A stretch of DNA of 41,464 nucleotides, taken from positions 1 to 41,464 of the forward strand of contig CAYVFO010000003.1 in assembly GCA_964450975.1 (NCBI GenBank), written 5' to 3'. The notes under the pieces are model-generated. The model saw nothing but the letters and a program-made list of their open reading frames with translations, was not told the origin of the DNA and ran no database searches. Shown here one piece after another: positions 24,091-41,464 of the stretch (within the stretch, counting starts at the first letter, position 1; each line of letters opens with the position of its first letter). A program made the position numbers and the translations under genes. Source of the stretch: an uncultured Elusimicrobia bacterium. Lineage in GTDB: Bacteria > Elusimicrobiota > Elusimicrobia > UBA1565 > UBA9628.

Positions 24091-24839
24091 CAGCCCTTCT
24101 TCGGCTCGAAGAGGGCCAGCTTGACGATGCCGATGCGCTGGAGCACGTAGAGGGCCAGGCACCACAGCGCCTCGAGGCCGTACACGCACGAGCGCCGGAA
24201 GTTGATCGACGAGGCCTCGGCGAAGTAGCGCGCCGCGACGGGCACGTCGCCCATGCGCTGCTTCATGTACGCGGCCTGGATCAGGAACTGCTGGTCGAAG
24301 ACGAAGTCGTCGGAGTTGTTCTCCCACGGGATGGTCTCGAGGCACTTGCGCGAGTACGCGCGCAGGCCCGAGTGCCACTCGCCCAGGTTCTGCCCGGTCA
24401 CGATGTTCTCGAAGCCGGTCAGGAGGCGGTTGAAGACGTACTTGTAGACGGGCATGCCGCCGCCGAGCGCCTCCCAGCGCGTGCGGATGCGGTTGCCGCA
24501 CACCATGTCGGCGATGTCGTTGGTGATGAGGCCGGCCATGATCGGCACGAGCCGCGCGTCGTACTGGTAATCGGGGTGGACCATGACGACGACGTCGGCG
24601 CCCTTCTCGAGGGCGGCCTTGTAGCAGGTCTTCTGGTTGCCGCCGTAGCCCTTGTTCGTCGTGTGCTGGATGACCGTCAGGCCCAGCTTCTTCGCCAGCG
24701 CGACCGTGCCGTCCTTGGAGCAGTCGTCGACGAGGATGACCTCGTCCACCGACCCGGGCGGGATGTCCTTGATGGTCCGCTCGAGGGTCTTCTCCGCGTT
24801 GTAGGCGGGCATGACGACGATCGTCTTGGCTTTGGGCAT
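24090..24839 (-). CDS. family 2 glycosyltransferase (polyprenyl-phosphate sugar synthase-like)
   Basis: VVMPAYNAEKTL, LVDDCSKDGT, HPDYQYD. One C-terminal hydrophobic helix. TATAAT (24854 to 24849) lies 9 nt before the ATG. Confidence 0.8.
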   Translation of the reverse strand: MPKAKTIVVMPAYNAEKTLERTIKDIPPGSVDEVILVDDCSKDGTVALAKKLGLTVIQHTTNKGYGGNQKTCYKAALEKGADVVVMVHPDYQYDARLVPIMAGLITNDIADMVCGNRIRTRWEALGGGMPVYKYVFNRLLTGFENIVTGQNLGEWHSGLRAYSRKCLETIPWENNSDDFVFDQQFLIQAAYMKQRMGDVPVAARYFAEASSINFRRSCVYGLEALWCLALYVLQRIGIVKLALFEPKKG

Positions 24840-24879
24840 GAGAGGGGTATTATAGGAAAGACGACGGGGGTATGACGCC

Positions 24880-26538
24880 TTAGCGGCGCAGTTTCCAGAC
24901 CCGGAGCCAGGGGCCCCGGACCTTGCCCGCCTCGAACGGGAACTCGGCGACGAGGTCGGCTCCGGCCGCCAATTCGGAGAAGAACGAGGCGTACTCGCGG
25001 GTGCGGCGCGGGTCGGCGCCGATGGAAGACGTCACGACGTACTTCGCGCGCACGGCGCGCACCGGATCGAGGCCCGGGCGCACGTCGAGGAAGTCGCCGT
25101 CGGCCTGCGACGCCGCCACGTGGCGCGGCGCGGAGAAGAGCTCGACGGCCTGCCGTTTGACTCGGTAAATCTTCCAGCCGCCGCCGGGGTGGCGCTCGGC
25201 CATCGCCTTCCAGAGCTTGGCGCGCGGGGAGCCGGCGGCCGCGGTCCGGGCGGCCAGGTCCTCGCACTGCTCCTTCGACGGGATCGCGCGCGGCGTGGCG
25301 TGCGGCAGATCGAGCAGAATCGTTTCCCCCGCCGGGATGTTCTTCGTCATCCACTCCTCGGCCTGGGCGCGCGTGTCGGGCAGGCGCAGCTCGGCGAGCC
25401 ACGCCCACGACATCCAGATTCCGGGAGCGAGCGCCAAGACGGCGACGGTCAGGCGGCGCCACGGCTTCTGGCCGCCGAGAAGGTTGAGGCCCTCGCCCGC
25501 GAGAACGGCGAGCGCGGGGAAGACGCCGAGCATGTAGCGCAGCCACGCGCCGTCGAAGCTGTACGAGAGCACGACGCCGTACGCGATCACGGGCACGATC
25601 AGAAGAACGGCGCGCTTCGTCTTCTTCCAGAGCAGGACGCCCAAACCCAGCAGCGCGGCCGCGCCGGCGGGCGAGCCGTCGCCGCCGAACGTCCACATGT
25701 TGTGGAGCACGCGCACGGCGGTCTCCGCGGCGTCGTGCGGACGCAGGCGGCCTAAGTCGCCATAGTCGGCCTGGTCCGCGATGAAGCGCTGGAACTCGAG
25801 GAGCACGTACGGCGAGCCCGCGAAGAACGCGGCGGCGGCGAAAGCGGCGGCCTGCAGGAGCCACGTGAAGTACGGCGCGCCCCCCTCGCGCAGCGCCCAC
25901 GCGAGCGGGACGACGAGCGCGATCGGCGCGGCGGTGTACTGCGTCGAGCACGCGGCTCCGACGGCGGCCGCGGAGGCGTAGAGCCAGCCGCGCGCGCCGC
26001 CCGACTGGAACTTGAGCGCGCACGCCCACGCGAGCGAGGCGAAGAAAGTCATCGTCATGTCGGGCTTCGCGGTGTGCGCGAGGTCGACGAGCGTGGGCGC
26101 CACGGCCAGGATCATCGCGGCGTACGGCCAGCGGCTCTTGTCGTCGGTCCGCTCCCAGCGCAGCATGACCGCGACCGCGCCGAGCGAGGCGGCGGCCGAG
26201 ACGAGGCGCGCGATCAGGTAGAAGCCCGTCGGCGCGAAGCCGTAGAGCGCGGCGAAGTCGAGCGGGCTCTTGCGCAGGCCGAAGAAAGACCAGAAGCCGA
26301 ACCACAGGCCGTAGAGGCCGGCGAGAAGCGTCGGCCAGAGCGTCGGGTACTTGAAGGAGTGCGGCCTAAGCGAGCCCGAGCCGAACGAGACGGCCATGTT
26401 GACCAAGTGCGGCTCGTCGGCGTTGTAGGTGTGCGGCAGGCCGTACGACGCCGTCGAGAAGCGCAGCCACGCGGCGAAGAGCGCGAACGCGAGACCCGCG
26501 TAGAGCCAGGGCGAGACTTCGGCGGCCTTCTTACGCAC
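24880..26538 (-). CDS. GT-C-fold glycosyltransferase (ArnT/PMT-like)
   Basis: GTG start. N-terminal loop motif YNADEPHLVNMA. About 11 TM segments plus a soluble C-terminal domain. 8-nt overlap with the upstream gene. Confidence 0.6.
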   Translation of the reverse strand: MRKKAAEVSPWLYAGLAFALFAAWLRFSTASYGLPHTYNADEPHLVNMAVSFGSGSLRPHSFKYPTLWPTLLAGLYGLWFGFWSFFGLRKSPLDFAALYGFAPTGFYLIARLVSAAASLGAVAVMLRWERTDDKSRWPYAAMILAVAPTLVDLAHTAKPDMTMTFFASLAWACALKFQSGGARGWLYASAAAVGAACSTQYTAAPIALVVPLAWALREGGAPYFTWLLQAAAFAAAAFFAGSPYVLLEFQRFIADQADYGDLGRLRPHDAAETAVRVLHNMWTFGGDGSPAGAAALLGLGVLLWKKTKRAVLLIVPVIAYGVVLSYSFDGAWLRYMLGVFPALAVLAGEGLNLLGGQKPWRRLTVAVLALAPGIWMSWAWLAELRLPDTRAQAEEWMTKNIPAGETILLDLPHATPRAIPSKEQCEDLAARTAAAGSPRAKLWKAMAERHPGGGWKIYRVKRQAVELFSAPRHVAASQADGDFLDVRPGLDPVRAVRAKYVVTSSIGADPRRTREYASFFSELAAGADLVAEFPFEAGKVRGPWLRVWKLRR

Positions 26539-27727
26539 GCTTCCCCCGCAGATAGGGCATCGCGCCGGCGGCGGCGAGGAGGCAGAGGAACGGCTCGAGC
26601 GGGACGCGGTAGCGCAAAGTCGTCAGGAACACGGCGTGCGCCATCGTGTGGTAGATCAGGAGCGCCCAGACCGCGCCCCACGGCGCGCCCGTCTTGAGCG
26701 CGGCGCGGCCGCCCAGGATCGCGAAGGCGAAGAGGACGGTGAAGTAGAGCCCCATCACGACGCGCTGCCAGAGCGTGTAGGGATCGTAGAGCCACGGGCG
26801 CCAGTACAAGAACGCCTTGCCGACGACGATGCCGGCGGCCTGGAGCGGGTTCTCTTTGACGAGGTTCATCGTCTTGTCGAAGAAGTACGCGCCGATCTCG
26901 CGGTCGGAGATCCCGTTGGCCTTGGCCTCGGCGGCCATGTCGATCGGATGCGTGCGGACGGCGTCGCGATCGAGCGTGAAGCCCTCGTAGAGATTCCAGC
27001 CCATCTGGCCGGAGAGCGGCACGAGCTGGCCGTACTTCTGGTAATTGCGATACGTCCACAGCGCCGAGGGCAAAAACCAGCCCGGCGCCATGAGGAGAGA
27101 AAAGAGAACGGCGTGCTTGAAGCCCTTGGCCTTCCACAGGAAGAAGAACAGAATTCCCGGGAACGCTCCGAAGACCGACTTGCACGACGTCGCCAAGCCT
27201 CCGATCAAGCCGATCGCCAGATGCTTCGCGGACAACGGCTTGTTCCACAGGAGCACGACTCCGTGGAAGAACAACATCAACAAGAAGACGAAGAACGTCT
27301 CGGTCTGGAGCTGCGGAGTGAAGAAGATCACGGCGGGATCGACGGCCAGCCAAAGGGCCGACAGCCGAGCGGTTTTCTCGTCGACCAATCTCCCGGCGGC
27401 ACGGCGCAGAATCAGCGGCGTGATGCCGCCGAGCACGACGTTGAATATGAGAATGGGATACTGACTATCGGTCCGCAGCAAACCGAGAATGCCCGCGATG
27501 ACGAGCGTGAACAGCGGCGGGTGAGTCGCGTCGAACTCGGGCATCGGCAGGTAGCCGAGCCACGAGAGCGCGAGGTTGAAGTAGAGGTCGCGGCCGTAGG
27601 CGTCGCCCAGGTTCTTGGCCTGGAACACCGCGAGGATCGCCAGGCGCGCGGCGACGGCGATCGCGAGGACGGTCCAGTCGAAGCGGCGCGCGCTCCAGCG
27701 CGTCAGGAACGGAAGGCGGCCTTCCAT
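26531..27727 (-). CDS. GT-C-fold membrane glycosyltransferase-like protein
   Basis: 398 aa, polytopic, no large soluble domain. Its position in the glycosylation array supports the call. The family call is tentative. Confidence 0.5.
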   Translation of the reverse strand: MEGRLPFLTRWSARRFDWTVLAIAVAARLAILAVFQAKNLGDAYGRDLYFNLALSWLGYLPMPEFDATHPPLFTLVIAGILGLLRTDSQYPILIFNVVLGGITPLILRRAAGRLVDEKTARLSALWLAVDPAVIFFTPQLQTETFFVFLLMLFFHGVVLLWNKPLSAKHLAIGLIGGLATSCKSVFGAFPGILFFFLWKAKGFKHAVLFSLLMAPGWFLPSALWTYRNYQKYGQLVPLSGQMGWNLYEGFTLDRDAVRTHPIDMAAEAKANGISDREIGAYFFDKTMNLVKENPLQAAGIVVGKAFLYWRPWLYDPYTLWQRVVMGLYFTVLFAFAILGGRAALKTGAPWGAVWALLIYHTMAHAVFLTTLRYRVPLEPFLCLLAAAGAMPYLRGKRA

Positions 27728-28197: not shown

Positions 28198-30726
28198 ATG
28201 AGGTTCGCAGCCGCCCTACTCTCCCTTTCGCTGATCGGCACTTCGATGCCGCTCGACGCCTCCGCCCAGGTCGTGCGCGTGGCGGTCGGCGAGGCGGGCA
28301 TCGCGCCCGTCGCGCCCGTCGGCAATTCGATCTCCGGCTCCAACCTCGCTCCCAATCTCTCGATCGGCGCGGCCACGCTCACCGGCGGCCTCTCCGCGCC
28401 CTCGATCGCGCCGGCTCCGTCCGCGCTGAACGGCGCCGTTTCCGTCAAAGCCGTTCCTTCCGCTCTCGCACCCGTCCTTTCCGCCCCCTCCACCGAGCAG
28501 CCTGAAAAGCCCGAGACCCCGAAGCAGGCCGCGACGCCCGTCGCGCCGGCCAAGGCGAAGAAGTGGTGGAACACCCCGATCACCGAGCTCCTCGGCCTCA
28601 AGAAGCCCGCCGAGGCGAAGTCCGAGCAGAAGACCACGACCGCCGAGACGGCCTCCGTCGAAGGCGCGGTCCAGTTCGACGGCGTCTCCGAGAAGAAGGG
28701 CTCCGTCGAGGGCGCGCCCGTCGTCGAGGGCGACAACTCCAAGGCCTTCAAGGCCGGACAGAAGCTCGGCAAGTTCGTCCGCCAGCAGAACGTCAAGCGC
28801 AACGCCTCCGTCGACGAGTTCGGCGGCCCCCTCTCCGAGCCGATGACCTTCAAGCAGCGCGTGGGCTACGGCCTCTCGCGCGGCCTCCACATGATCGGCA
28901 TCGGCGCGATCATGACCGTCGGCCTCAAGCCACTGCTCGACGCGTGGGCCTGGCCCTCGATCATCAGCGACTCGGCGCTCCAGGGCTTCGGCCGCGTGGC
29001 GCTGCTCACAAAGTTCGGCCCCAACGAGATCGTCGAAGGGCTCGCCAACAACCCGATCGGCTTCATGGGCTTCTCTCTGCCGTGGGCGGTCACGATGGAG
29101 GAGATCTCCTTCCGCCTGCTCGGCTTCGGCCTGACCTTCCTCGTCATCGCCGCGGTCCGCCCGTTCTCGCGCTGGGTTTCGAAGATGATCAGCGGCCTGC
29201 CCGACGCGGCGGGCGCCGTGACCGGCGTGCAGCGCTTCCTCAAGCTCGGCGACGTGACCTCCCGCTACGCGTTCCCGATCGCGGCGATCTACTCCTCGTT
29301 CCAGTTCGCCGTCGCGCACTTCGGCGCGTGGGGCGTCGACCCGTACATCCTGCTCGTCAACGGCGTGCTCGGCGTGTTCCTCGCGCACACGGCCTACAAG
29401 TCGCGCAGCATCGTCGCGCCGATCGTCGCGCACCTCCTCTTCAACCTCTCCGTCTTCGCCGTGATCCTCGCCGGCATCGTCTGGTCGCCCGCGACCGCGC
29501 TGATGATCGCGATCGTCATGGGCCTGCTCGGAAGCGCCTCGCTGCTCTACTCGTGGCTGATGGCCCGCAAGATCAAGAAGTTCCAGATCAACGGCGCGAT
29601 GTCCATCGTGGCGCTCGCGCTCGCCGGCTCGCTGCTCACGGGCGTCAACCCGCCGAGCAAGGGCGACCTCGCCCGCGCGTTCAACTCCCACTCCACCCGC
29701 GGCGACATCACGCTCGTCCAGGAAGCCGTCAAGCCCGGCGCCGCCGTGGGCGCGGCCGTCTCGGCCGGCGGCGTCGCGCCCGACTCGACGAAGGCGGCCG
29801 TCGCCCCCGTGATCGAGCCGCGCGAAGTCATGACCGCGCGCGTGAAGGGCGCGGTCGTCAACGTCATCGTCAGGATGCCCCAGGGCATGGGCACCGGGTC
29901 CGGCTTCATCATCACGCCCGACGGCATGTTCATCTCCAACGCTCACGTCACGGGCACGCGCAAGCCCGGCGAGTTCGTCGAGGCCCGCATCCCCGGCGTC
30001 AACGGCATCGTCCGCGCCAAAGTCCTCGCCGCCAATCACGACAAAGACATCGCGATCCTCCAGCTCGCGCCGCGCATGGACGGCAAGCCGTGGCCGACGG
30101 TCCCGCTCGCGAAGAACCCGCCGCTCGAGGGCGAGCAGGTGACCGCGATGGGCTACCCGCGCGGCCTGCCCTTCACCGTGACGGCGGGCGTCATGTCCGG
30201 CCTCGAGGGCCGCGGCAACATGTACGTGCAGCACCTGCAGACCGACGCCTCGATCAACCCCGGCAACTCCGGCGGCCCGCTGTTCAACGCTGCGGGCGAA
30301 GTCGTCGGCATGAACACCCAGATCTTCACGATGAGCGGCGGCTCCGACGGCCTCGGCTTCTCGATCACCGCTCCCGCGATCCAGATGGCGATCGATCAGT
30401 ACCTCAAGACCGGCAACATGGCCACCGCGTCGCTCGGCATCATCGCCAACCTCTCGGACCCGAACAAGCCCGAGGCGGGCCTCGAGATCGAGTACGTGAA
30501 GTCCGGCTCCGCCGCCGAGGCCGCCGGCCTCAAGCGCGGCGACCTCATCGTCGCGGTCGGCGACATGCCGATCATGGAAGGCGGCCAGGAAGCCGCGCTC
30601 AAGATCGCCCTCGCCCTCTCCCGCCATACGCCCGGCGAGCAGGTCGACGTCACCGTGCTCCGCGCCGACGAGAAGCACGTCATCAAGGTGAAGGTCGACG
30701 CGAAAGTCACGGGCGAGTCGCGCTAG
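28198..30726 (+). CDS. fusion protein: signal peptide + Ala/Pro/Ser leader + CPBP (CAAX/Abi) intramembrane protease + HtrA-like serine protease + PDZ
   Basis: CPBP motifs MEEISFR (EExxxR), FAVAH (FxxxH), HLLFN (HxxxN). S1C triad contexts SNAHV, DKDIAIL, GNSGGPLF. PDZ-like tail GLKRGDLIVAVGD. TACACT (28185-28190) lies 7 nt before the ATG. The upstream 134 codons of the track ORF are rejected. Confidence 0.75.
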   Translation: MRFAAALLSLSLIGTSMPLDASAQVVRVAVGEAGIAPVAPVGNSISGSNLAPNLSIGAATLTGGLSAPSIAPAPSALNGAVSVKAVPSALAPVLSAPSTEQPEKPETPKQAATPVAPAKAKKWWNTPITELLGLKKPAEAKSEQKTTTAETASVEGAVQFDGVSEKKGSVEGAPVVEGDNSKAFKAGQKLGKFVRQQNVKRNASVDEFGGPLSEPMTFKQRVGYGLSRGLHMIGIGAIMTVGLKPLLDAWAWPSIISDSALQGFGRVALLTKFGPNEIVEGLANNPIGFMGFSLPWAVTMEEISFRLLGFGLTFLVIAAVRPFSRWVSKMISGLPDAAGAVTGVQRFLKLGDVTSRYAFPIAAIYSSFQFAVAHFGAWGVDPYILLVNGVLGVFLAHTAYKSRSIVAPIVAHLLFNLSVFAVILAGIVWSPATALMIAIVMGLLGSASLLYSWLMARKIKKFQINGAMSIVALALAGSLLTGVNPPSKGDLARAFNSHSTRGDITLVQEAVKPGAAVGAAVSAGGVAPDSTKAAVAPVIEPREVMTARVKGAVVNVIVRMPQGMGTGSGFIITPDGMFISNAHVTGTRKPGEFVEARIPGVNGIVRAKVLAANHDKDIAILQLAPRMDGKPWPTVPLAKNPPLEGEQVTAMGYPRGLPFTVTAGVMSGLEGRGNMYVQHLQTDASINPGNSGGPLFNAAGEVVGMNTQIFTMSGGSDGLGFSITAPAIQMAIDQYLKTGNMATASLGIIANLSDPNKPEAGLEIEYVKSGSAAEAAGLKRGDLIVAVGDMPIMEGGQEAALKIALALSRHTPGEQVDVTVLRADEKHVIKVKVDAKVTGESR

Positions 30727-31813: not shown

Positions 31814-32101
31814 CTAGGCGCCGAGCGCGTTCCACCAGTCGGCCAGCATCCGCTTCCGCTTCTTCGCGTCGTCCTGCGCGGTCAGGACGTCGAGGAAGGA
31901 TTGGGAAATCGCGTGATAGCCTTGGGCGCCCCCGCCCGCCACCCAGCAGTGCATGAGCAAAGCGCCGCACGACGCGCACTTGCCGACCGTGAACTCGACG
32001 CCCTCGGCGGAGCCGACGTCGGCCGAGCCGGACAGCTCTTCGGTCAGGCGTGCGAATTCCTGAGATGGACAGCAGTCCATGGAACTTTTAGGGCCGCTCA
32101 T
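31814..32101 (-). CDS. small Cys-rich hypothetical protein
   Basis: MDCCPSQ...GKCASCGALLMHCW contains six Cys. TACTCT (32114 to 32109) lies 7 nt before ATG 32101; ATG 32080 is the alternative. Track start 32182 lies in low-GC palindromic DNA and is doubted. Confidence 0.4.
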   Translation of the reverse strand: MSGPKSSMDCCPSQEFARLTEELSGSADVGSAEGVEFTVGKCASCGALLMHCWVAGGGAQGYHAISQSFLDVLTAQDDAKKRKRMLADWWNALGA

Positions 32102-32218
32102 TCGTATGAGAGTAGAAGAATTGCCGGCCCGCCGCCAGAGAAATTGACTAGCTCTAGAGTCAGTCAATGGCTTAGAAGCCATCGAACAAGCACCGGTGCG
32201 CGTGATTATCAGTAGTAG

Positions 32219-33589
32219 CTAGAGCGCGAAAGGCTTGCCGTCGGCGGGGTGGACGGTCTCGACGATGCCGTTCGGGCCGGCCTCGACCGAGAGCCAGTGG
32301 TGGAGCTTGCGCTTGCGCGTGGTCGAGGGCTCGGGGTAGAGAGGCGATCCGCCGCCGCCGGTGAGCACGTAGCGCACGCCGTCGCGCTCGACCGAGCCGA
32401 GCGCGTGGATATGGCCCATGTAGACGCGCTTCACTTTCTTCTTGGCCATCAGCGCCATGAACTCGGCGGCGCCTTCCTTGAAGCCGCCGGCGCCCTTCAA
32501 GGCGCCCCAGTCGGTGAACTCGCCGAGCGGGGCGGGCGGGATGTGCGTGAAGACGACCGTCGGAACGGATTCGTCGAGCACGGACGACAGCCACTCGAGC
32601 TGCGGCTTCGTCACGCGGTTCTCCGAGGAATCCAGCACGACGAAGCGCCATCCGGCGCGCTCGAAGACGTAATTGGGCGAGCCGAACGTCGCCTTATACA
32701 CGTTCGCGTTCGTGACGCCGTGCGGCTTGTGGCGGTCGTGGTTGCCGAGCGCTGTGAGATAGGGGACCTTCACGCCCGCGAGGAACCAGCCCTTGATGAA
32801 GGACCAATACTGGGCGATCGTGCCGCGGCTGACCATGTCGCCCATCTGGAAGATGAAGTCGGGCGCGGTCGTGTTGGCGCGCGCGAGCAGGCGCCAGAAG
32901 ACGCCGGGCTGGTTGAACAGCTTGCGCGAGAACCAGAAGCGGCCGGGCTCGCTGTCGCCGATCACCGCGAACTTGAAGCTCTCCCCCTTCGCTCGCGGGG
33001 TTTCGGCGAGCTTCGAGAGTTGGCGTTCGGTGCGCAGGGGCAGCGCCTTCTTCTGCAGCACGCCGAGCGCGCCGGGCGCGCGGTGCTGCGCGGGCTTGAC
33101 GACGATGTGGCCGCGGCCGACCGCCTCCTCGATCGTCGGGACCGTGATCATCGGCGCGTGCGCCATGCGCGGCACGCGGCCGTCCCACATGTCGCGCTCG
33201 ACGGTCAGGATCGAATCGGGGGCGCCGACGAGGCCCGTGTCGAGGTCGGCGTCGGGCTTATAAGGCAGCCCGGTGTGGACGCTCACGCCGGTCTGACGGC
33301 TGCCGTGGATGATCCACGGCTTGCCGGTCTTCTCGGCCAAGGCCTTCACGGCCTCGATCTGCTGAGGCGTGACGCCGGGACCGGGCACGCCGAGCACTTG
33401 CGTCCCCGACAGCAAAGACGGCGCGAGCTTGGGCGCGTCGGCGCTCGGAGCGGAGAGGACGCTCGCGGAGAGCGCGGGAGCGGTCAGGCCCGGCGCGGAA
33501 GGGATAGCGCTGCGCGGGACGACGACCTGGGAAGAGGCCGCGCCGGCGACCCAGAGCAGAAGGATCGCCGGCGCGGTCACGACGGTCAT
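32219..33589 (-). CDS. secreted calcineurin-like metallophosphoesterase with N-terminal extra domain
   Basis: Signal peptide plus A/P/S leader. MPE motifs VIGDSEPG, QMGDMVSRG, LGNHD, FTHIP, MGHIHA. The ATG lies 1 nt after the moxR stop. Confidence 0.75.
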   Translation of the reverse strand: MTVVTAPAILLLWVAGAASSQVVVPRSAIPSAPGLTAPALSASVLSAPSADAPKLAPSLLSGTQVLGVPGPGVTPQQIEAVKALAEKTGKPWIIHGSRQTGVSVHTGLPYKPDADLDTGLVGAPDSILTVERDMWDGRVPRMAHAPMITVPTIEEAVGRGHIVVKPAQHRAPGALGVLQKKALPLRTERQLSKLAETPRAKGESFKFAVIGDSEPGRFWFSRKLFNQPGVFWRLLARANTTAPDFIFQMGDMVSRGTIAQYWSFIKGWFLAGVKVPYLTALGNHDRHKPHGVTNANVYKATFGSPNYVFERAGWRFVVLDSSENRVTKPQLEWLSSVLDESVPTVVFTHIPPAPLGEFTDWGALKGAGGFKEGAAEFMALMAKKKVKRVYMGHIHALGSVERDGVRYVLTGGGGSPLYPEPSTTRKRKLHHWLSVEAGPNGIVETVHPADGKPFAL

Positions 33590-33590
33590 G

Positions 33591-35084
33591 TTATTTGACG
33601 GGCTGCTTGGCCGGAGGAACCAGGCGGGCGCCGGGGTTCGGAACGCCGACCTTCTTGAGGATCTGGTCGACGACCTGGTCGGTGGTCAGGTTGTTCGCCT
33701 GGTAGCCGAGCGTGACGCGGTGGCGCAGGATGCGGTGAGCCACGTCGCGGACGTCCTGAGGCGAGACCCACGCGCGGCCGTTGAGGAGCGCGTTGATCTT
33801 GGCGGCCTTGAGGAGGAAGATGGCCGCGCGCGGCGAGGCGCCGGACTCGATCGCGTCCTTCGCGTCGATGCCGTACTTCGCCGGGTTGTGCGTCGCCTCG
33901 ATGATGTTGACGATGTAGTCGTCGATCGCGGGATCGACGTGGACCTGCTCGGCGATCTTGCGGATCGCGACGAGCTCATCAAGGGAGGTGATCTTGCCGG
34001 CCTTCGGCTGGCCCTCTTTCTTGGAGAACCGGTTCATGATCTCCTTGAGCTGCTCCATCGTCGGGCGGGGCACGAGGACCTTGTACATGAAGCGGTCCTG
34101 CTGGGCCTCGGGCAGGCGGTAGACGCCTTCCTGCTCGATCGGGTTCTGCGTCGCGAGCACCATGAACGGCTTCGGCAGCTCGAGCGTCTTGCGCGCGATC
34201 GTGACGCGGCCCTCGGCCATGGCCTCGAGGAGCGCGGCCTGCGTCTTCGGCATCATGCGGTTGATCTCGTCGACGAGCAGGATGTTCGTGAACACCGGGC
34301 CCTGGACGAGCTTGAACGCCTTCTCGCCGGTCGCCGGGTCTTCCTGCACGATCTCGGAGCCGAGGATGTCGGACGGGAGCTTGTCGGGCGTGCCCTGCAC
34401 GCGCTCGAACTGGCCCTCGACCGCGTCGGAGAACGCCTTGACGGTCTGCGTCTTGGCGACGCCGGGGACGCCTTCGAGGAGGACGTGCTCGGAGGCGATC
34501 ATCGCGGTGATGATCGAGTCGATCATGTCTTCCTGGCCGACGATGACCTTCGCGATCTCGGCGCGGATGCCCTTCACGACCGCGGCCTTCTCGACGATCG
34601 TCTGCGCGAGCGCCGCGTCGCCGCCCGCGTACGGGGAGGCGGCGGCGTCGACGGAAGGAGCCGAGGCGATCAGCGACTCGCCGGTGAGCGCGGCTTCGAG
34701 CGCGTTGCCCGCGCCGTGGACCTGCCCCGTCGGAGCCTTGCCCAAGTTCGGCATCGCGGCGAGAGCGTTCGTCGCGTTCGTCATCCGCTCGGCGGCGGAG
34801 GCCGCGGAGGTCACGGGCTTGAGGGCCGCCGGAACCGCGGCGGCCGCGGCCGGGATGACCGAGGGAGCCGGGAGCAGCGAGGGCGTCAGGGCCGAGCCCA
34901 GGCCCAGCGTCGGAGCCGCGAGCGCCGGCGCGCCGAGCGTGACCGAGGGCGCCGCGATGCCCGCGCCGAGCGCGGGAGCGACGGTGCCCGCCGGCACGCG
35001 CCCGCGCAGCTGCGCGGAAGCGGGCATCGGCGCGGCGATCATCGCCGCCAGTCCGAGATTGATGATGCTGGGAACTTTCTTCAT
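33591..35084 (-). CDS. MoxR-family AAA+ ATPase with about 170-aa N-terminal signal-like Ala/Pro-rich extension
   Basis: Last 497 codons of track ORF 33591..38246(-). Walker A EGVPGVAKTQ, Walker B ILLVDEINR, and VIVGQEDMI typical of MoxR. AGGAG lies 5 nt before ATG 35084. Confidence 0.85.
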   Translation of the reverse strand: MKKVPSIINLGLAAMIAAPMPASAQLRGRVPAGTVAPALGAGIAAPSVTLGAPALAAPTLGLGSALTPSLLPAPSVIPAAAAAVPAALKPVTSAASAAERMTNATNALAAMPNLGKAPTGQVHGAGNALEAALTGESLIASAPSVDAAASPYAGGDAALAQTIVEKAAVVKGIRAEIAKVIVGQEDMIDSIITAMIASEHVLLEGVPGVAKTQTVKAFSDAVEGQFERVQGTPDKLPSDILGSEIVQEDPATGEKAFKLVQGPVFTNILLVDEINRMMPKTQAALLEAMAEGRVTIARKTLELPKPFMVLATQNPIEQEGVYRLPEAQQDRFMYKVLVPRPTMEQLKEIMNRFSKKEGQPKAGKITSLDELVAIRKIAEQVHVDPAIDDYIVNIIEATHNPAKYGIDAKDAIESGASPRAAIFLLKAAKINALLNGRAWVSPQDVRDVAHRILRHRVTLGYQANNLTTDQVVDQILKKVGVPNPGARLVPPAKQPVK

Positions 35085-35092
35085 AGACGCTC

Positions 35093-38000
35093 CTAAGGGT
35101 TCTTCGGCTGCTTGGCTTTCGGCTGCAGCGCCAGCTCGAGGCTTTCGAGCGGGTCGCCTTCGGTGGAAATCTTGATCGGGCGCAGGCGCGCGGCCTCGAA
35201 CGCCGTCTCGATCATCTGCTCGCGGCGGGAGATCAAAGCGCCCTGCTCGCGGCGGACTTCGGAAGAGGAGGTGTCGAGCACGCGGGTCGTCCCCGTCTCG
35301 GCGTCCTCGACGGGCAGGAGGCCCACGTCGGGGAGCGGCTGGAGCTCCGCGGGATCGCTCACGCGGATCGGGCGCACGTCGTGGCGCGCGGCGAGCGAGC
35401 CGAGCGCGTCCTTGAAGTCGGCGGAGATGAAGTCGGAGATGACGGCGACCATCGAGCGCGAGACGAGGACCTTGCCCGCGGTGTCGAGGCCGGGCTTGAG
35501 GTCGGTCGTCTGGCCCTGCGCCTCGGCGTTCAGGATCGCCTCGATGAGCTGCATCGCGTGCTTCTGGCCGCCCTTGGGCGGGATCACGGTCTCGACGCGG
35601 TCGGAGACGAGGATCAGGCCGACGCGCACGTTGTGGCGCGTCGCCGCGAGCGCGATCACCGCGGCCGCGTCCTGGATCGCCGCGCGCTTCTCGACGCCCG
35701 TGGTGCCGACGCGGCCGGACTTGGAGACGTCGACGACGAGCATGAGCGGCATGTCGCGCTCGAGCTCGAACTTCTTCGCGTAGAGCTCGTCCTTCTTCGC
35801 GGAGGTCTTCCAGTCGATCTCGCGGGCGTCCTCGTTCTCGTACGGGCGGGCCTCGGCGAACTCGGTGCCGCCGGCGCCGATGAAGCGCGAGCGGAACGAG
35901 CCGCCGGAGACGGCGGTCGCGAGGCGGCGCGCGGAGAGCTCGATGCGGCGGTGGCGCGCGAGCGTCTTGGCCTCGATCGTGTCGCGGCCGGCCTCGGCGG
36001 CGAGGCGGGCCTCCTCCTCCTTGGCCTGCGCCTTGGAGAGCATGCGCCAGACGACGAACGCGGCGCCGATGCCGACGGCGGCGAAGAGCAGGAGCGGAAC
36101 GGCGCCGAGCACGGGCAGCGCGGCGAGCATGAGCGGCGAGAAGGCGTGCTGCGTCTTCTTGCCCTCGTGAGCGGCGAGCGCGCGGTCGGCGGCGCGGAGC
36201 GCCTCGTCGATCGTCTCGGCCTCGGCGTCGGTCAGGTCGCGCGGCGTCGTGCCGTCGCCCTCCCAGCCCTTGCCCGACTTCTTGATGCCCTCGAGCCACG
36301 TCTTGAGCTTCACGACGTCGGCCTTGGAGTATTTCTCGCGGTACTCGCCGGAGCCGTAGCCGGCGCCGTTGGAGTCCATGAGGCCCATCGCGCGCAGCTT
36401 CTCGGTGAACGTCGAGCCCGGGAACACGGTGTAGCCCTTCTGCAGGCGGCTGTTGAGGAGCTCGGCGGAGATCTCCGCGGGATCGTCGCCGGCGGCGACG
36501 CCGGAGGCGGCCGCGATGCGCTCGTAAAGAGGAAGGAGGGTCTTGGCCTTCTCGAACGCCTTGCGCTGCTCGGCGGTGGGCTTCTTGACCTTGGCCATCG
36601 CCGAGTCGGAGGCCGCGCGCAGCTCGCGGTAGTGGCGAAGCGTGAACGGCTCGCGCCAGGAGTCGTCGTCCTCGCGCGCGCCCGAGTTGACGTTCGCGTC
36701 CTTGAGCTTGTCGAGGACCTTCTCGAGCTCCTCGCCGACTTCGGTCGCGCCCTTCGCCGCGCGCTCGGACGCGGCCTCGGCCATGAGCTTGCCGGCGGGG
36801 GTCTTGAGGCCGGCGAGCAAGGCCTCGAGCTGCGGCTTCTCCGAGGGCGTGCCGGCGACGGCCTCGGACACGAGGTCGAGGACCTGAGCGACGTCGGCGG
36901 AGTCGTGACCGGGACGCGCCTTGAGGATTTCGATGAGGACGTCCTGCGCGCGGACGGCGAAGCCCGCGTCCTTGGCGCGCGCCTTGAGCGCGACCGTCAG
37001 GCGCACGAGCGCGAGCGACTCCTGACCGGGGCGCATCACCTCGGTCTTGAGGTCGGCTCCCTTGGTCGCGGCGGGGCCGCCGAAGCGCTTGGCCAAGATC
37101 TCGTCGAAGCGGTCGATGGCGCCGGTGAGGAAGACCTTCTCGTTCCACGTGAGGTCGCGCGGCGAGGAGCCGAGCGACTTGCCGCCGGCGGCGGTCTTCA
37201 CGAGCCACGCGCGGATGGCCTCGAGCTCGGCCTTCGTGTAGGTCTGCCGGTAGTCGGAGAGGTTGTTGCCCGCGCCGGGCATGAGCTTCGCGGCGCGCAG
37301 CGCCTCGTTGAACTCGGAGGCGGTGAACAGGCGGTAGCCGGCGAGCAGGACGACGTTGGCCTCGTCGGCCGCGATCTCGCCGACGGAATCGCCGGCGGGC
37401 GCGCCCGCGAGGGCGGCCAGAGCCTTGTAAGAGGAGATCGTCTTGCGCGCGGTCTCGGCGGCGGCCTTCATCTCGGGCGTGAGCTTGCCCGCGGCGCGCG
37501 CCTGGTTTTCGGCTTCCGTGATGCCGTCGATGATCGACTGGTAATGGCGCAGCTTGAGGTCGGAGCGCCAGGCGTACTCGGACTCGCGCGCGCCCACGAG
37601 CAGGTTCGCGGTCTTGAGGCCGGCGAACGCCGACTCGGCCTTCTCGGCCGCGGCCTTCAGACCCTCGCCGGCGCGCTCGCGCGCGGCGGGAGCGAAAGCG
37701 GCGCCGTTCGGCGTCTTGAGGACGGACGTGAGCGCGTCGACCGCGACGGACTCGGCCGGCTTGCCCTTCACCGAGGCGAGGATCTGCTTGAGGAGGGCGT
37801 TCGCGTCGGCGGCGTCGAAGCCGGGGCGGCCGACCTGCGCGAAGAGCTTGGTCTCGACGTCGAGCGCGGCGGAGTCGCCCTTCGCCGTGAGCTCGCGCGA
37901 GAGCTTCGCGATGAGGAGCGAGTCCTCGTCGGAGGCGTCGAGCGCCTTCTCGGACGGGAAGCGAGCGGCGCGGACGGCCTCGACCTGCTCGATCGCGCCG

Positions 38001-41000
38001 GAAAGCCAGATCTTCTCGGCCCACGTGAGCGGGCGGGTCTTGCCGTCGGACTCCCAGCCCTTGTTCTCCTTGGCCATCACGACGAGCGCGTCGCGCAGAG
38101 TCGCGAGCTGGGCGGCGTCGAGCGACTCGGCGTAGGCGAGGCGCGAGGAGTAGTCGCCCATCGCGGGCGCCAAGCCGAGCGTCCGCATCGCCTTCATGAA
38201 GTGCTGGCCGCTGAACGTGCTCTGGCCGGACTTGATCGTCTCCCACAGATCGTCGGCGGCGAGCTCGGGAGCCGAGCCGCCCTGCATCATGCCGGCCTTC
38301 GCGCCCGCCTCGAGCGACTTCTCGACGGTCGCCATCGCGCGGTCCATGAGCTCGCGCGTCGCGGCGTTCTCCTTCGTCGCCGGCTCGGCCTTCGGGCCGC
38401 CCATCTCCTCGAGCGCCTTCGCGAACGCCTGCAGATGCCCGAGCTTGTAGAGCTCGCGGTAGTTCTTGGTCGTGTAGGAGCCGCCGCGGCCGTAGTAGCC
38501 GCCGTGGCCGTGGTCGTCGTAGTAGTCGCCGTAGCCGCCGCCGCTCTGCGAATCGGGCAGGACGACGCCGTCGGCGATCAGCCGCTCGTGGAGGCCGGGG
38601 ATCGCGGCCTCGGCTTCCTTGATCTGCTCGGTGATCGCCTGCGTGATCAGGTAGCGCACGCCGCCCTGCAGAGGCGCCGGCGCGTTCCCGTCGCCCTGCA
38701 TCTTGTCGCCGATGTTGAGGAGCATGACGACCATCGACGGCGGGCCCTTCACTTCCTGGTCGGGAGGCGTCGCCTCCCAGATCGGCTTGCGCAGCGCGTC
38801 GTAGGCGCGCGCGATCGCCAGAGACTTGTCGAGGAAGATCTTCGCCTTCGCGAGGTCGCCGTCCTGGATCGCCGCGTCGCCGAGGCGGCGGAAGACGAAC
38901 GAGGCGGACCAGAGCTGGAGCGCGGGGTCGTTGACGTGCTTGTCCTGGACCGCGGTTATCCCGTCGAAGAACTTCTTGCCGCCGTCTCGGGAGAGGTGCG
39001 AGTAGAGAACGCCGCCCGCCATCTGCTGGACCTGGCGGTTCGGGCTCTTGAGCACGCGGAAGAGCTGGACGATCGTCTTCTCGTTGCCGGACTCGACGCC
39101 GAGCACGACGAGCTTGACGAGCAGCATCGCCGCGCCCTCGTCGGAGCGGGACGCCGCGATGATCTGGTCCATCGACGCCCAGAGCATGTCGTTGTCGCGC
39201 TCGATGAGCGAGCGCAGCATGATCGCCTCGCCCTGCGCGGTCAGCGGCAGGATGCCGGCGCGGCGGACGATCGCGACGAGCACGTTGTCGGCCTTGGGAT
39301 CGGGCGACTCGCGCAGGATCTGCAGCGCGCGCTCGAGGTCGCCGCCGGCGGTGCGCGGCGACTCGTGCCAGCGCTTGAGCGCGGGAAGGACCTGCTCGGG
39401 GATGCGCGCGTCCACGTAGCGGTCGGTGAAGATGACGAGGTCCTCGGCGTAGAAGAGGCGCATCGAGGCCTCGGCGGCCTGCCGCTGCTGCGCCTGGAAC
39501 TGGATCGTGCCGATCGAGGACACGCCGGTCAGCGCGATCATCAGGGAGAGGACGCCGACAGTGCCCCAGCGCTTGAGGCGCGCGCCGAGTCCCGGAGCCT
39601 GCGGAGCCTTCAGCGACGGGATCTCATAAGGAACGGGCTTCGACGCCGCGATCGCCTCGAGCGCTTCCACGCGCAGGACCGCGTCGGAGTGCGAGAGCCA
39701 GCCGATGTCGGCGCGGCGCGCGAGGATGCGCTCGGTGACCGGCGTCAGCGGCTCCATGCGCGTCTTGCCGGCGCGGCGGAGCGCGGCCAGGATCTTGTCC
39801 ATCGTCTCGGGCGAGGCGCCGGAGAGGTACGCGGCGGTCAGGAGCTCGCGCCAGAGGGCCTCGTCGCGCGCGGCCCAGTCGATCATCGTCTCGCGCAGCG
39901 GCTCCTTGGCCTGCTGCCACTTCGCGACGAAGTGCGAGAGGCGGCGCTCGTCGGCCTCGCGCAGGTCGTAGAGGTGGACGAGGTCCTTCGCGACGCCCTT
40001 CGGCACCGCGCCGTTCCAGCGCTGCCACGTCTCGGTGATCCGGCGCGTGAGCGCGCCGCCCGTCCAGTGGTCGTAGGCGAGGTAGCCGGCGGCGAGCGTG
40101 GCGAGGATCGCGAACGGAAGAATCTGGGGCCACGCGCCGAGCGGGATCAAGGCGAGGCCGAGGAAGGAGGCGGGGCCGCCGAGCGAGCCCGAGCCCTTGC
40201 CCTTCTCGTCCTTCGCGGCCTTCTTCTCGCCCGCGTCGTTCTGCGGGCGGCGGAGGAAGGACTTGCCCTTGAGAATCGAGTCGAGCAGCAGGAGCATCAG
40301 CGCGGGCCAGAGGAGGTAGACGCCGATCGGGCGCGGCGACTTGATCGTGTCGCCCTGCTGGCCCTTCTCGAGCGCCGAGACGTCCTTGAGGATCGCGTCG
40401 ATCGAGGTCTTGCCGCCGGAGCGGAAGTACGCGCCGCCGGTGCGCTCGGCGAGCTTGCGCAGCGGCCCCTCGACGAGGCGCGTCGTCGCGGGCTGGCCCG
40501 TCTTCTCGTCGATCTGATACTCGAAGCCCTTCCCGTCCTCGGTCGGGATCTTGATCTTCGTGCCGGCGGGATCGCCGACGCCGATGACGTAGACCGTGAC
40601 CTTGTGCTCGAGCGCGGCCGCGATCGCCTTCTCGACGTCGGCCTCGGGCACGTCGCCGTCGGAGATGACGATCATCAGGCGCTGGCGGTCGCCGAGCTTC
40701 TTGAGGACCTCGAAGTGCTCGGCGGCGTACTTGACGCCGTCGCCCAAGTTCGAGCCCGCGCCGATGTCGCGCGTCTCGACTTCGGGGCGGTTGATCTTGA
40801 ACTCGAAATTCGAGTACTCGGCGGAGACGGGCGAGGCGGTGCGGGCCTTGCCCGCGAAGAAGACGAGGCCGACGCGGTCGGTGCCCTGCAGGCGCGAGAT
40901 GAACTCGTTGAGCTCCTTCCGCGTGCGCTCCATGCGGCCGTCCTCGGCGTACACCATCGAGGTCGAGCCGTCGACGGTGACGACGATGTCCTTGCCGCCG

Positions 41001-41464
41001 AAGTTGACGCGCTCGTCGGTCATGCCGCCGCGCGGATCCATCGACGCGAGGCCGGTCAAGCCGAGCACGGACAGGATGAGGGCGGTCTTCGTCAGGAAGC
41101 GCTTCGCCCCCCACCACCCGGTGAAATTCTTGGGAGCCGTGACGGGCGCGAGCTTCTTGGCCGCGGCCATGTTCTTGCGCAGGCCCCAGAGCACGAAGAG
41201 GATCGCCAGCGGCAGGCCGATGCCGAGCACCCACGCGAACGCGGCGCCGGAGAACATGACGCCCTGGCCGGCGAAGGCGAGCGGCAGCGCGGCCATGCCC
41301 CAGACGCCGGAGCCCTTGCGCGGGATCGCCTTGCGGGCGGCGTCCTTCTCGCCTTTCTCCTGCTGGCCGAGAGCCTCGCCGAGCTTGTCGGCGCCTTCCT
41401 TGGGATCCTTGCCGTCTTTGCCGTCCTTCGGCTTGCCGTCGCCCTTCTTGTCGCCCTGCTGGTC
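35093..41464 (-). CDS. giant membrane protein: BatA-like TM-vWA-TM module + about 1,300 aa unassigned repeat region + 2TM-DUF58 module (5' end open at window edge)
   Basis: One uninterrupted frame. vWA MIDAS VDGSTSM...ISDGD (about 40400-41000). DUF58 signature GTEFAEARPYENEDAREIDWKTSAKKDELYAKKFE (about 35250-35960). Additional TM segments. The frame continues in phase, with no stop, from ATG 41296 to the window end. Confidence 0.8.
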   Translation of the reverse strand, partial: DQQGDKKGDGKPKDGKDGKDPKEGADKLGEALGQQEKGEKDAARKAIPRKGSGVWGMAALPLAFAGQGVMFSGAAFAWVLGIGLPLAILFVLWGLRKNMAAAKKLAPVTAPKNFTGWWGAKRFLTKTALILSVLGLTGLASMDPRGGMTDERVNFGGKDIVVTVDGSTSMVYAEDGRMERTRKELNEFISRLQGTDRVGLVFFAGKARTASPVSAEYSNFEFKINRPEVETRDIGAGSNLGDGVKYAAEHFEVLKKLGDRQRLMIVISDGDVPEADVEKAIAAALEHKVTVYVIGVGDPAGTKIKIPTEDGKGFEYQIDEKTGQPATTRLVEGPLRKLAERTGGAYFRSGGKTSIDAILKDVSALEKGQQGDTIKSPRPIGVYLLWPALMLLLLDSILKGKSFLRRPQNDAGEKKAAKDEKGKGSGSLGGPASFLGLALIPLGAWPQILPFAILATLAAGYLAYDHWTGGALTRRITETWQRWNGAVPKGVAKDLVHLYDLREADERRLSHFVAKWQQAKEPLRETMIDWAARDEALWRELLTAAYLSGASPETMDKILAALRRAGKTRMEPLTPVTERILARRADIGWLSHSDAVLRVEALEAIAASKPVPYEIPSLKAPQAPGLGARLKRWGTVGVLSLMIALTGVSSIGTIQFQAQQRQAAEASMRLFYAEDLVIFTDRYVDARIPEQVLPALKRWHESPRTAGGDLERALQILRESPDPKADNVLVAIVRRAGILPLTAQGEAIMLRSLIERDNDMLWASMDQIIAASRSDEGAAMLLVKLVVLGVESGNEKTIVQLFRVLKSPNRQVQQMAGGVLYSHLSRDGGKKFFDGITAVQDKHVNDPALQLWSASFVFRRLGDAAIQDGDLAKAKIFLDKSLAIARAYDALRKPIWEATPPDQEVKGPPSMVVMLLNIGDKMQGDGNAPAPLQGGVRYLITQAITEQIKEAEAAIPGLHERLIADGVVLPDSQSGGGYGDYYDDHGHGGYYGRGGSYTTKNYRELYKLGHLQAFAKALEEMGGPKAEPATKENAATRELMDRAMATVEKSLEAGAKAGMMQGGSAPELAADDLWETIKSGQSTFSGQHFMKAMRTLGLAPAMGDYSSRLAYAESLDAAQLATLRDALVVMAKENKGWESDGKTRPLTWAEKIWLSGAIEQVEAVRAARFPSEKALDASDEDSLLIAKLSRELTAKGDSAALDVETKLFAQVGRPGFDAADANALLKQILASVKGKPAESVAVDALTSVLKTPNGAAFAPAARERAGEGLKAAAEKAESAFAGLKTANLLVGARESEYAWRSDLKLRHYQSIIDGITEAENQARAAGKLTPEMKAAAETARKTISSYKALAALAGAPAGDSVGEIAADEANVVLLAGYRLFTASEFNEALRAAKLMPGAGNNLSDYRQTYTKAELEAIRAWLVKTAAGGKSLGSSPRDLTWNEKVFLTGAIDRFDEILAKRFGGPAATKGADLKTEVMRPGQESLALVRLTVALKARAKDAGFAVRAQDVLIEILKARPGHDSADVAQVLDLVSEAVAGTPSEKPQLEALLAGLKTPAGKLMAEAASERAAKGATEVGEELEKVLDKLKDANVNSGAREDDDSWREPFTLRHYRELRAASDSAMAKVKKPTAEQRKAFEKAKTLLPLYERIAAASGVAAGDDPAEISAELLNSRLQKGYTVFPGSTFTEKLRAMGLMDSNGAGYGSGEYREKYSKADVVKLKTWLEGIKKSGKGWEGDGTTPRDLTDAEAETIDEALRAADRALAAHEGKKTQHAFSPLMLAALPVLGAVPLLLFAAVGIGAAFVVWRMLSKAQAKEEEARLAAEAGRDTIEAKTLARHRRIELSARRLATAVSGGSFRSRFIGAGGTEFAEARPYENEDAREIDWKTSAKKDELYAKKFELERDMPLMLVVDVSKSGRVGTTGVEKRAAIQDAAAVIALAATRHNVRVGLILVSDRVETVIPPKGGQKHAMQLIEAILNAEAQGQTTDLKPGLDTAGKVLVSRSMVAVISDFISADFKDALGSLAARHDVRPIRVSDPAELQPLPDVGLLPVEDAETGTTRVLDTSSSEVRREQGALISRREQMIETAFEAARLRPIKISTEGDPLESLELALQPKAKQPKNP
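36165..38479 (-). repeat. protein-level tandem repeat, A-B-A-B-A arrangement, period about 909 nt (about 303 aa), inside the giant ORF
   Basis: A units start at YTTKNYRELY (about 38479), WRSDLKLRHY (about 37570) and WREPFTLRHY (about 36660). Each A unit ends in G(K)xWExDGxxPRDLTxxEKxxLxGAI. B units align with each other (SLLIAKLSRELTAKG... versus SLALVRLTVALKARA...). Confidence 0.7.

Follow-up and report, generated by a model that had tools for sequence, protein, structure and literature searches.

The Bat operon, known as batA-E in Bacteroides fragilis and with homologues in Leptospira, Borrelia, Francisella and Rhizobium, combines an AAA+ ATPase of the MoxR-proper type with a DUF58 protein, two proteins in which a von Willebrand factor A (vWA) domain with a metal ion-dependent adhesion site (MIDAS) motif lies between transmembrane (TM) helices, tetratricopeptide repeats (TPRs) and a BatD-like domain. 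In RavA-ViaA, NorQ/NorD and CbbQ/CbbO, MoxR is likewise paired with an adjacently encoded, MIDAS-bearing vWA partner, which is a soluble or peripheral protein of the cytoplasm and has known clients. Pairwise fusions of bat genes are also on record, namely batB-batC in L. biflexa, bb0170 of Borrelia (BatD, TPR and SH3) and examples in S. thermophila and Francisella Schu S4 (PMC3557215, PMC5700661). Each of these joins two neighbouring genes, and none includes DUF58, all modules or a novel insert. Here we describe a locus in a 41,464-nucleotide (nt) stretch of DNA from an uncultured Elusimicrobia bacterium (contig CAYVFO010000003.1; this whole stretch is called the window), where a giant membrane protein, a MoxR ATPase and a phosphoesterase are encoded in this order on the minus strand. 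The giant protein and MoxR together appear to have the same parts list as the Bat operon, but all non-ATPase parts are found in one polypeptide of ~3,200 amino acids (aa), the modules come in roughly the opposite order and end with moxR, and a family-specific solenoid of ~1,100 aa and a helical domain of 170 aa are inserted. Further differences from the Bat operon are extra helices that maintain the topology of the fused modules, a signal-like extension of 170 aa on MoxR and the added phosphoesterase. Compared with RavA-ViaA-type pairs, the adjacency of MoxR and a MIDAS-bearing partner is shared, whereas the vWA/DUF58 partner is polytopic. We consider it likely that the system is a lineage-specific, fully fused variant of the Bat ('MoxR proper') type. 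In the literature searched we found no fusion of all modules including DUF58, no Bat system with an orphan solenoid of ~1,100 aa, no coupled phosphoesterase and no signal-bearing MoxR, consistent with a preliminary description of this DNA that had put the locus forward as an undescribed variant.

An apparent fusion of all Bat-type modules

The part of the giant gene within the window has the following features, with residues numbered along the visible protein.

35093..41464, minus strand: 3' part of the giant fused Bat-type gene, 2,123 codons and a TAG stop, open at the window edge (orthologues ~3,200 aa)
41297..41464, minus strand: Lys/Asp/Gly/Pro-rich linker, residues 1-56, continuing the (KPGDG)n linker of the orthologues
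41039..41296, minus strand: membrane helices H1/H2 (residues 57-95) and H3 (124-142), an N-terminal anchor of the BatA/BatB type with a Lys/Arg-rich cytoplasmic loop between
40355..41032, minus strand: BatB-like vWA domain by Pfam, predicted periplasmic, with the invariant MIDAS motif DGSTS at 40958-40972
40271..40330, minus strand: helix H4 by hydrophobicity, which anchors the vWA module at its C-terminal end and precedes a Lys-rich loop
40073..40165, minus strand: H5, a hydrophobic stretch of 31 residues (434-464) with the conserved PLGAWPQILPF, probably a hairpin or re-entrant loop
39566..40072, minus strand: conserved helical domain of ~170 aa (residues 465-633), without a family match in the Pfam search
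39497..39565, minus strand: transmembrane helix H6 (residues 634-656), N-flank strongly positive
36140..39496, minus strand: alpha-solenoid of ~1,100 aa (residues 657-1775), with a HEAT-like part, a disordered loop at 38462-38551 and then repeats
36221..38302, minus strand: ~2.3 copies of a ~300-aa repeat (37415-38302, 36512-37414 and a partial copy at 36221-36511)
36029..36139, minus strand: hydrophobic stretch H7/8 (residues 1776-1812) before DUF58, by hydrophobicity; family mean 38 residues
35243..35854, minus strand: DUF58 (vWA-like) domain by Pfam and conservation, with the invariant DxSxS motif DVSKS

Profile searches identified the terminal modules of the visible protein. Pfam VWA matched residues 159-301 (3e-22), and DUF58 (PF01882) matched residues 1871-2074 (1e-57; 195.2 bits against a cut-off of 23.4), covering positions 1-206 of the 216 in the model. 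These matches agree with the vWA and complete C-terminal DUF58 modules of the preliminary description. Both domains carry a MIDAS motif that is invariant in 26 homologues, DGSTS (D165, S167, S169) in the vWA domain and DVSKS (D1912, S1914, S1916) in DUF58.

The order of modules across the family starts with a signal peptide and an Ala/Pro-rich spacer, a second, internal signal-like helix and a DUF11/BatD-like domain with a weak match. Next come a TM helix with a helical region, a BatA-like TM-vWA-TM module, BatC-like TPRs and the KPGDG linker. This is followed by a BatB-like module (TM-TM-TM-vWA with MIDAS-TM), a hydrophobic hairpin, the 170-aa helical domain, a TM helix, the ~1,100-aa alpha-solenoid, a hydrophobic anchor and the DUF58 vWA-like domain with its own MIDAS motif. 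NCBIfam models matched three of the modules: BatA the upstream vWA module (2e-53; 181 bits against a cut-off of 380), BatC the TPRs (5e-20) and BatB the visible vWA module (7e-19; 68 bits against 350). The BatC match is below its cut-off while the TPRs themselves are clear, and the BatD domain match is weak (E 0.2); both were seen in orthologues, outside the window. BatA_N (PF07584) scored 20.4 against a cut-off of 25.9, solely on the upstream module of the orthologue P0005. Because all Bat-specific NCBIfam scores are below the curated cut-offs, the modules are named Bat-like and are not called equivalogs. Overall the domain content suggests a fusion of a whole Bat operon, comprising BatD-like, BatA-like, BatC-like TPR, BatB-like vWA and DUF58 modules. 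The claim that vWA and DUF58 are fused in one membrane protein stands, and these are not the only two modules.

The second signal-peptide-like element, LKRGLAILALSVGMLASQQQASAQ, is found just before the BatD-like domain (P0005 residues 181-207; locus L001, ~4861-4941), and also in L003 ORF1 at offset 248. It looks as though a signal-bearing BatD-like gene has been fused behind another module consisting of a signal and a spacer.

One continuous frame, cut by the window edge

On the minus strand, the frame 41464-35093 stays open over 2,123 codons, from the window edge to the TAG at 35095-35093. Because the genome has ~69% GC and yields numerous long spurious open reading frames (ORFs), we examined the composition of codon positions. 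The GC content was 0.92-1.00 at third positions (GC3) and ~0.45 at second positions (GC2) in each 100-codon bin, and this constancy along the frame argues for a single continuous coding frame without a hidden frameshift. At least 15 independent assemblies also have one ORF. Real genes in the window are overlapped by long ORFs, up to 1,551 aa in length, that are antisense or out of frame (33590-38246 and many others); these are artefacts of high GC, with GC2 of ~0.7.

The visible protein aligns from residue ~1087 of P0005, an orthologue of 3,182 aa, and the orthologues carry ~1,090 aa further upstream of the part seen in the window. The Met at 41296 is replaced by Ile in P0005, and ATG 41296 is therefore an internal codon and not the gene start. 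Judging from the orthologues, the complete gene would have ~3,200 codons, with the last two thirds in the window. Thus the uninterrupted frame of more than 2,100 codons reported earlier is real as a visible frame but is not the whole gene. Similarly, the stretch of ~340 aa taken for the N-terminus does have the BatA/BatB-like layout (vWA, MIDAS and flanking hydrophobic segments) but is internal. The source contig probably breaks within the KPGDG repeat linker; a tandem-repeat scan at the window end found no clean nucleotide repeat. At the other end, the TAG of the giant gene overlaps the GGAG of the moxR Shine-Dalgarno sequence, 8 nt before ATG 35084, and the moxR TAA is 1 nt from the phosphoesterase ATG at 33589, both as first described. 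We regard the giant gene as translationally coupled to moxR.

A family-specific solenoid in the middle region

Nothing meaningful was found by Pfam at E<=1 in the middle region, in which no domain had been recognised before. A phmmer search with this region against 1.84 billion cluster representatives returned 47 proteins, all members of the giant-protein family or their fragments, and on sequence grounds the region is restricted to that family. The structure of the central region, which the preliminary description had proposed to predict, was modelled by AlphaFold2 (residues 655-1790) with a mean predicted local distance difference test (pLDDT) score of 84.9, and is an all-alpha solenoid with one disordered loop. 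When the solenoid was compared to the PDB, Foldseek found just generic HEAT/ARM/TPR solenoids (transportin, condensin, Ctr9) at TM-scores of 0.1-0.2. Given the lack of a domain match, the occurrence in this family only and the all-alpha model, we therefore view the middle region as a family-restricted helical scaffold. The large repeats noticed earlier are evident: residues 1055-1350 and 1351-1651 are 32% identical (E 2e-35), with a partial third copy at 1652-1748, and more distant homologues have one repeat unit fewer.

The solenoid is interrupted by a conserved, disordered loop rich in Gly, Tyr, Asp and His, GGGYGDYYDDHGHGGYYGRGG (residues 972-1001; 38462-38551, minus strand), which could bind metal or be an element of low complexity.

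Predicted membrane topology

We assigned the orientation of the hydrophobic segments by the positive-inside rule, using flank charges averaged over 26 homologues.

H1: runs outward
H2: runs inward, with the Lys/Arg-rich loop after it
H3: runs outward, so that the vWA domain would lie outside
H4: runs inward
H5: positive charge on both flanks, probably a hairpin or re-entrant loop
H6: runs outward, N-flank mean of 4.0 Lys/Arg against 0.1 Asp/Glu
H7/8: 38 residues, flanks weakly charged, C-flank net negative

The vWA domain of the BatB-like module is thereby predicted to face the periplasm, like that of Borrelia BB0173, whose vWA domain was found outside when its topology was measured experimentally (PMC5700661). 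An extra short hydrophobic helix (ALLPGAAG or ALPLAFAGQG) is present ahead of each fused vWA module and would restore the N-out start required by BatA-type anchors. The simplest placement of the solenoid is probably the periplasm, and an extracytoplasmic middle region, as proposed earlier, is favoured by the charge rules. The position of DUF58 could go either way: outside if H7/8 forms a hairpin, inside if it is a single span.

MoxR has a conserved signal-like extension

33591..35084, minus strand: moxR, 497 aa; extension at residues 1-170 (34575-35084), AAA_3 core at 34086-34487, followed by AAA_lid_2

The gene following the giant gene had been called moxR, and this identity is borne out by matches to AAA_3 (1e-55; 187.7 bits against a cut-off of 27) and AAA_lid_2 (63.3 bits against 22.7). 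The Pfam bpMoxR model also matches (1e-12), and AAA_3 is far better. Walker A (GvPGVaKT), Walker B (L.DEINR), sensor 1 (ATqNP) and the Arg finger (PEAq.DRF) are invariant in 18 orthologues, in which sensor 2 (s.RA) is also conserved. The invariance of the ATPase motifs indicates that ATP use by MoxR is under selection.

Typical MoxR proteins are cytoplasmic, have ~320 aa and lack a signal peptide. The protein here departs from this pattern, with 497 aa and a conserved signal-like N-terminus and spacer. The preliminary description had overlooked the signal-peptide-like N-termini of both MoxR and the phosphoesterase. The architecture of the first ~170 residues of MoxR is conserved in 19 of 19 orthologues, distant ones among them, and another copy, in locus L028, starts likewise. 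It consists of an MKK n-region, a hydrophobic core of 11-14 residues, an A-x-A-Q site, a nearly chargeless spacer of ~75 residues rich in Ala, Pro, Ser and Leu, and the motif ERMKDATAALAAMPNLSKAS..G.G.ALE.ALTGE. The phosphoesterase and the giant protein have the same kind of N-terminus, as does a neighbouring Rce1-like/trypsin/PDZ protease. In ~500 kb of locus sequence, the strict pattern of a signal and an uncharged Ala/Pro spacer was limited to these four families, with the sole exception of one spurious ORF in a repeat frame. By classical criteria the N-termini of the four families would be Sec signals. Searching the MoxR extension against 5.8 billion proteins gave nothing at E<=1e-3, and the orthologues were not recovered either. 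A hidden Markov model of the extension matched the N-terminus of the giant protein weakly (~1e-4, with bias correction off). We found no precedent for a signal-bearing MoxR in the literature searched.

A metallophosphoesterase with an additional domain

32219..33589, minus strand: metallophosphoesterase, 456 aa; signal-like segment and spacer at 33410-33589, N-domain at 32990-33409, catalytic domain at 32402-32977

The second downstream gene encodes a phosphoesterase, as had been proposed, with a match to Pfam Metallophos (PF00149) of 2e-11 (45 bits against a cut-off of 21.5). Its AlphaFold2 model (mean pLDDT 81) has disordered residues 1-60 and, at residues 61-200, an alpha/beta N-domain predicted with confidence. 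The catalytic domain matches Rv0805 (3ib7), GpdQ (3d03) and purple acid phosphatases in Foldseek (9e-11 to 1e-9). While the catalytic fold is common to class III cyclic nucleotide (cNMP) phosphodiesterases, GpdQ and purple acid phosphatases, identity is just 17-19%, and the first metal motif is GD-x-E rather than the D-x-H of those enzymes. The extra N-domain, the signal-like segment and the spacer also set it apart from Rv0805, GpdQ and the purple acid phosphatases. NCBIfam scores for CpdA and SpdA are far under their cut-offs (28.5 against 225 and 31.2 against 400). The N-domain had no Pfam match at E<=1 and found nothing in a PDB profile search. It carries a GS...DLD motif on a beta-alpha-beta pattern, and our guess is that it is nucleotidyltransferase-like; the second Asp of the motif is Asn in several orthologues, and the N-domain is eroded in three.

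The fusion is conserved among Elusimicrobia

To follow the fused architecture in related genomes, as the preliminary description had suggested, we scanned one genome per GTDB species and found 24 loci, all in Elusimicrobia or Elusimicrobiota; the organisms that carry the family are uncultivated. A search of 5.8 billion proteins returned ~45 relatives, most of ~3,200 aa and with 56-61% identity over the whole query. The named relatives of the giant protein are from metagenome-assembled genomes of Elusimicrobia, and public names at NCBI/JGI are only 'VWA domain-containing protein' or 'DUF58/TPR protein'. The giant gene is a single ORF of 2,780-3,400 aa in at least 15 independent assemblies. It is directly followed by moxR in every locus with downstream sequence, and the phosphoesterase follows moxR in ~11 loci. 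Thus the gene order first described for the window, from the giant gene through moxR to the phosphoesterase, is kept across the family except at loci without a phosphoesterase.

The giant gene is broken by frameshifts in L002 (CP096137.1), L003/L020 (CBDIQC010000001.1) and L028. L002 and L003/L020 are megabase-scale assemblies and L028 is a Logan contig. In L003 and L028, one frame degenerates into junk rich in Arg and Pro, and the other gives the true sequence ahead of the start that was called. In L002 the giant gene is broken across many frames, and the phosphoesterase is broken too. We considered L003/L020, L028 and P0029/P0032/P0040/P0042 as natural splits and rejected this, L003 and L028 being frameshifts; the broken copies in L003 and L028 are indel errors or pseudogenes. 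We likewise rejected the ~1,900-aa forms as natural split products, as they begin at the repeat linker on short contigs, like the window. Since the gene is broken in L002, L003/L020 and L028, P0040, P0047 and similar public gene calls are fragments.

Upstream synteny is also kept, with an ATP-synt_ab-type ATPase, a Ribonuc_L-PSP (RidA-like) gene and a hypothetical protein of ~320 aa (L001 1-4253, L002 6576-9125, L003 2720-4942). In L001 a histidine kinase and response regulators are encoded directly ahead of the giant gene.

Neighbouring genes

28198..30726, plus strand: Rce1-like/trypsin/PDZ protease, with the start at 28198 placed by alignment with an orthologue
Protease in relatives: L001 20840-23617; L012 23683-26202; L015 24307-26934; L027 18002-20632; L013 21101-23719

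In the protease (~840 aa), trypsin and PDZ domains are joined to an Rce1-like (CPBP) membrane protease domain. The protease is convergent to the operon in at least seven loci and may be an associated component. Two PMT_2 genes (GT-C, protein-mannosyltransferase-like) and one GT2 gene adjoin the protease in the window (24090-27727, minus strand), and one PMT_2 gene holds its position in L012 (27104-27994) and L015 (27317-28162). That the PMT_2 enzymes O-glycosylate the Ala/Pro/Ser/Thr spacers is pure speculation.

Past the phosphoesterase stop, an AT-rich intergenic stretch (32144-32180) contains the imperfect palindrome TTGACTGACTCTAGAGCTAGTCAA, which may be an operator or terminator. It is upstream of a small Cys-rich ORF of 122 aa (31814-32182, minus strand) that has no Pfam match. 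The window also contains the housekeeping genes for MutS (8385-11003, plus strand) and a B12-binding radical SAM enzyme (129-1736, plus strand), neither with a signal-like N-terminus.

Proposed mechanism and alternative explanations

As it has the parts of a Bat-type MoxR system, the locus is expected to work like one. By analogy with other MoxR-vWA pairs, a MoxR hexamer would dock on the MIDAS-bearing DUF58 domain and spend ATP to remodel the fused scaffold, while the periplasm-facing vWA domains and the solenoid would hold or mature envelope ligands. The fusion would fix the subunits at 1:1, making the Bat proteins and DUF58 one physical complex. The solenoid, with its variable number of repeats, may act as a scaffold or spacer that probably lies on the side of the periplasm, and the phosphoesterase may be an accessory enzyme. 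Several points weigh against a fused Bat-type system of this kind. All of the Bat-specific NCBIfam scores are under the curated cut-offs, and the N-terminal third lies outside the window and is read from orthologues. Flank charges fix the membrane side of neither DUF58 nor the solenoid, and if MoxR were a cytoplasmic ATPase that docks on a DUF58 in the cytoplasm, conserved Sec signal-like N-termini would not be expected on it and on the phosphoesterase. L019, L021, L025 and L027 lack the phosphoesterase despite room; the earlier proposal that it is an added component thus holds for this locus, where it is coupled, and for the ~11 loci that have it, but not for these. Finally, the family is known from sequence alone, and the function of Bat systems in general is unclear (PMC3557215).

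The signal-like N-termini raise the question of an extracytoplasmic machine, in which MoxR and the phosphoesterase would be exported by Sec and act on a periplasmic DUF58 and solenoid. Consistent with this, the MKK n-region, the h-region of 11-14 residues and A-x-A-Q are present in 19 of 19 MoxR orthologues, and the same N-terminal layout is found on the phosphoesterase, the giant protein and the protease, whose trypsin-PDZ part is of a periplasmic type. Further support comes from the strongly positive N-flank of H6 and the lack of positive flanks around the 38-residue H7/8, which would place the solenoid and DUF58 outside. However, the periplasm is to our knowledge not a place with usable ATP, and we know of no exported MoxR or other AAA+ ATPase, while the invariant ATPase motifs point to selection for ATP use. 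In addition, the signals were judged by classical criteria alone, and a wholly uncharged spacer could instead reflect membrane association. We therefore see export as possible but unlikely. If the signals are functional, this would be the first AAA+ (MoxR) machine assembled and working outside the cytoplasm, docking on a periplasmic DUF58 at the end of a solenoid that spans the periplasm, with an exported phosphoesterase and a shared tag perhaps O-glycosylated by PMT_2, a scenario that we regard as rather doubtful.

The KPGDG linker and the loop at residues 399-433, both Lys-rich and of low complexity, fall exactly at module boundaries, and the trypsin-PDZ protease is a conserved neighbour, which would fit a polyprotein precursor cut at these linkers into Bat-like subunits, perhaps by the trypsin-like protease. 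We give this little credence: cleavage is conjectural, the linkers are cytoplasmic by charge rules whereas the protease domain is probably periplasmic, and the protease neighbourhood may be plain synteny among relatives. It is very unlikely that the locus is an anti-phage or conflict system of the ternary MoxR-vWA type. This reading is suggested by the bpMoxR match of the ATPase (1e-12), but AAA_3 scores far better, there is no beta-propeller or effector domain, and the locus is in conserved chromosomal synteny. PADLOC likewise gave no real match, with nothing on the giant protein or the phosphoesterase and a marginal DolB (E 9e-4) on MoxR. That the giant ORF is an artefact, either a spurious frame of a 69% GC genome or genes fused by an assembly or frameshift error, is largely refuted and carries almost no weight with us. 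High-GC DNA is indeed rich in long spurious ORFs, and three related assemblies are broken (L002, L003 and L028), but GC3 stays at 0.92-1.0 along the whole frame, one ORF is seen in at least 15 independent assemblies, and the broken copies show a junk frame beside an intact one, as expected of indel errors or pseudogenes.

Implications for Bat systems

The role of the Bat/MoxR-proper systems has been unclear since the bat genes were first described (PMC3557215), and whether their subunits form one complex has been unclear likewise. A natural fusion of every non-ATPase subunit, including DUF58, is strong genomic evidence that they act as one 1:1 assembly. The fusion also settles in which order the modules come and narrows the topologies open to them, and it offers one defined polypeptide for structural work, with the addition of an orphan solenoid of ~1,100 aa whose repeat count varies. 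An ATPase that is clearly under selection for ATP use and yet carries an export-type signal is a concrete anomaly: either the usual rules of localisation do not apply in this phylum, or the periplasm harbours a working AAA+ ATPase.

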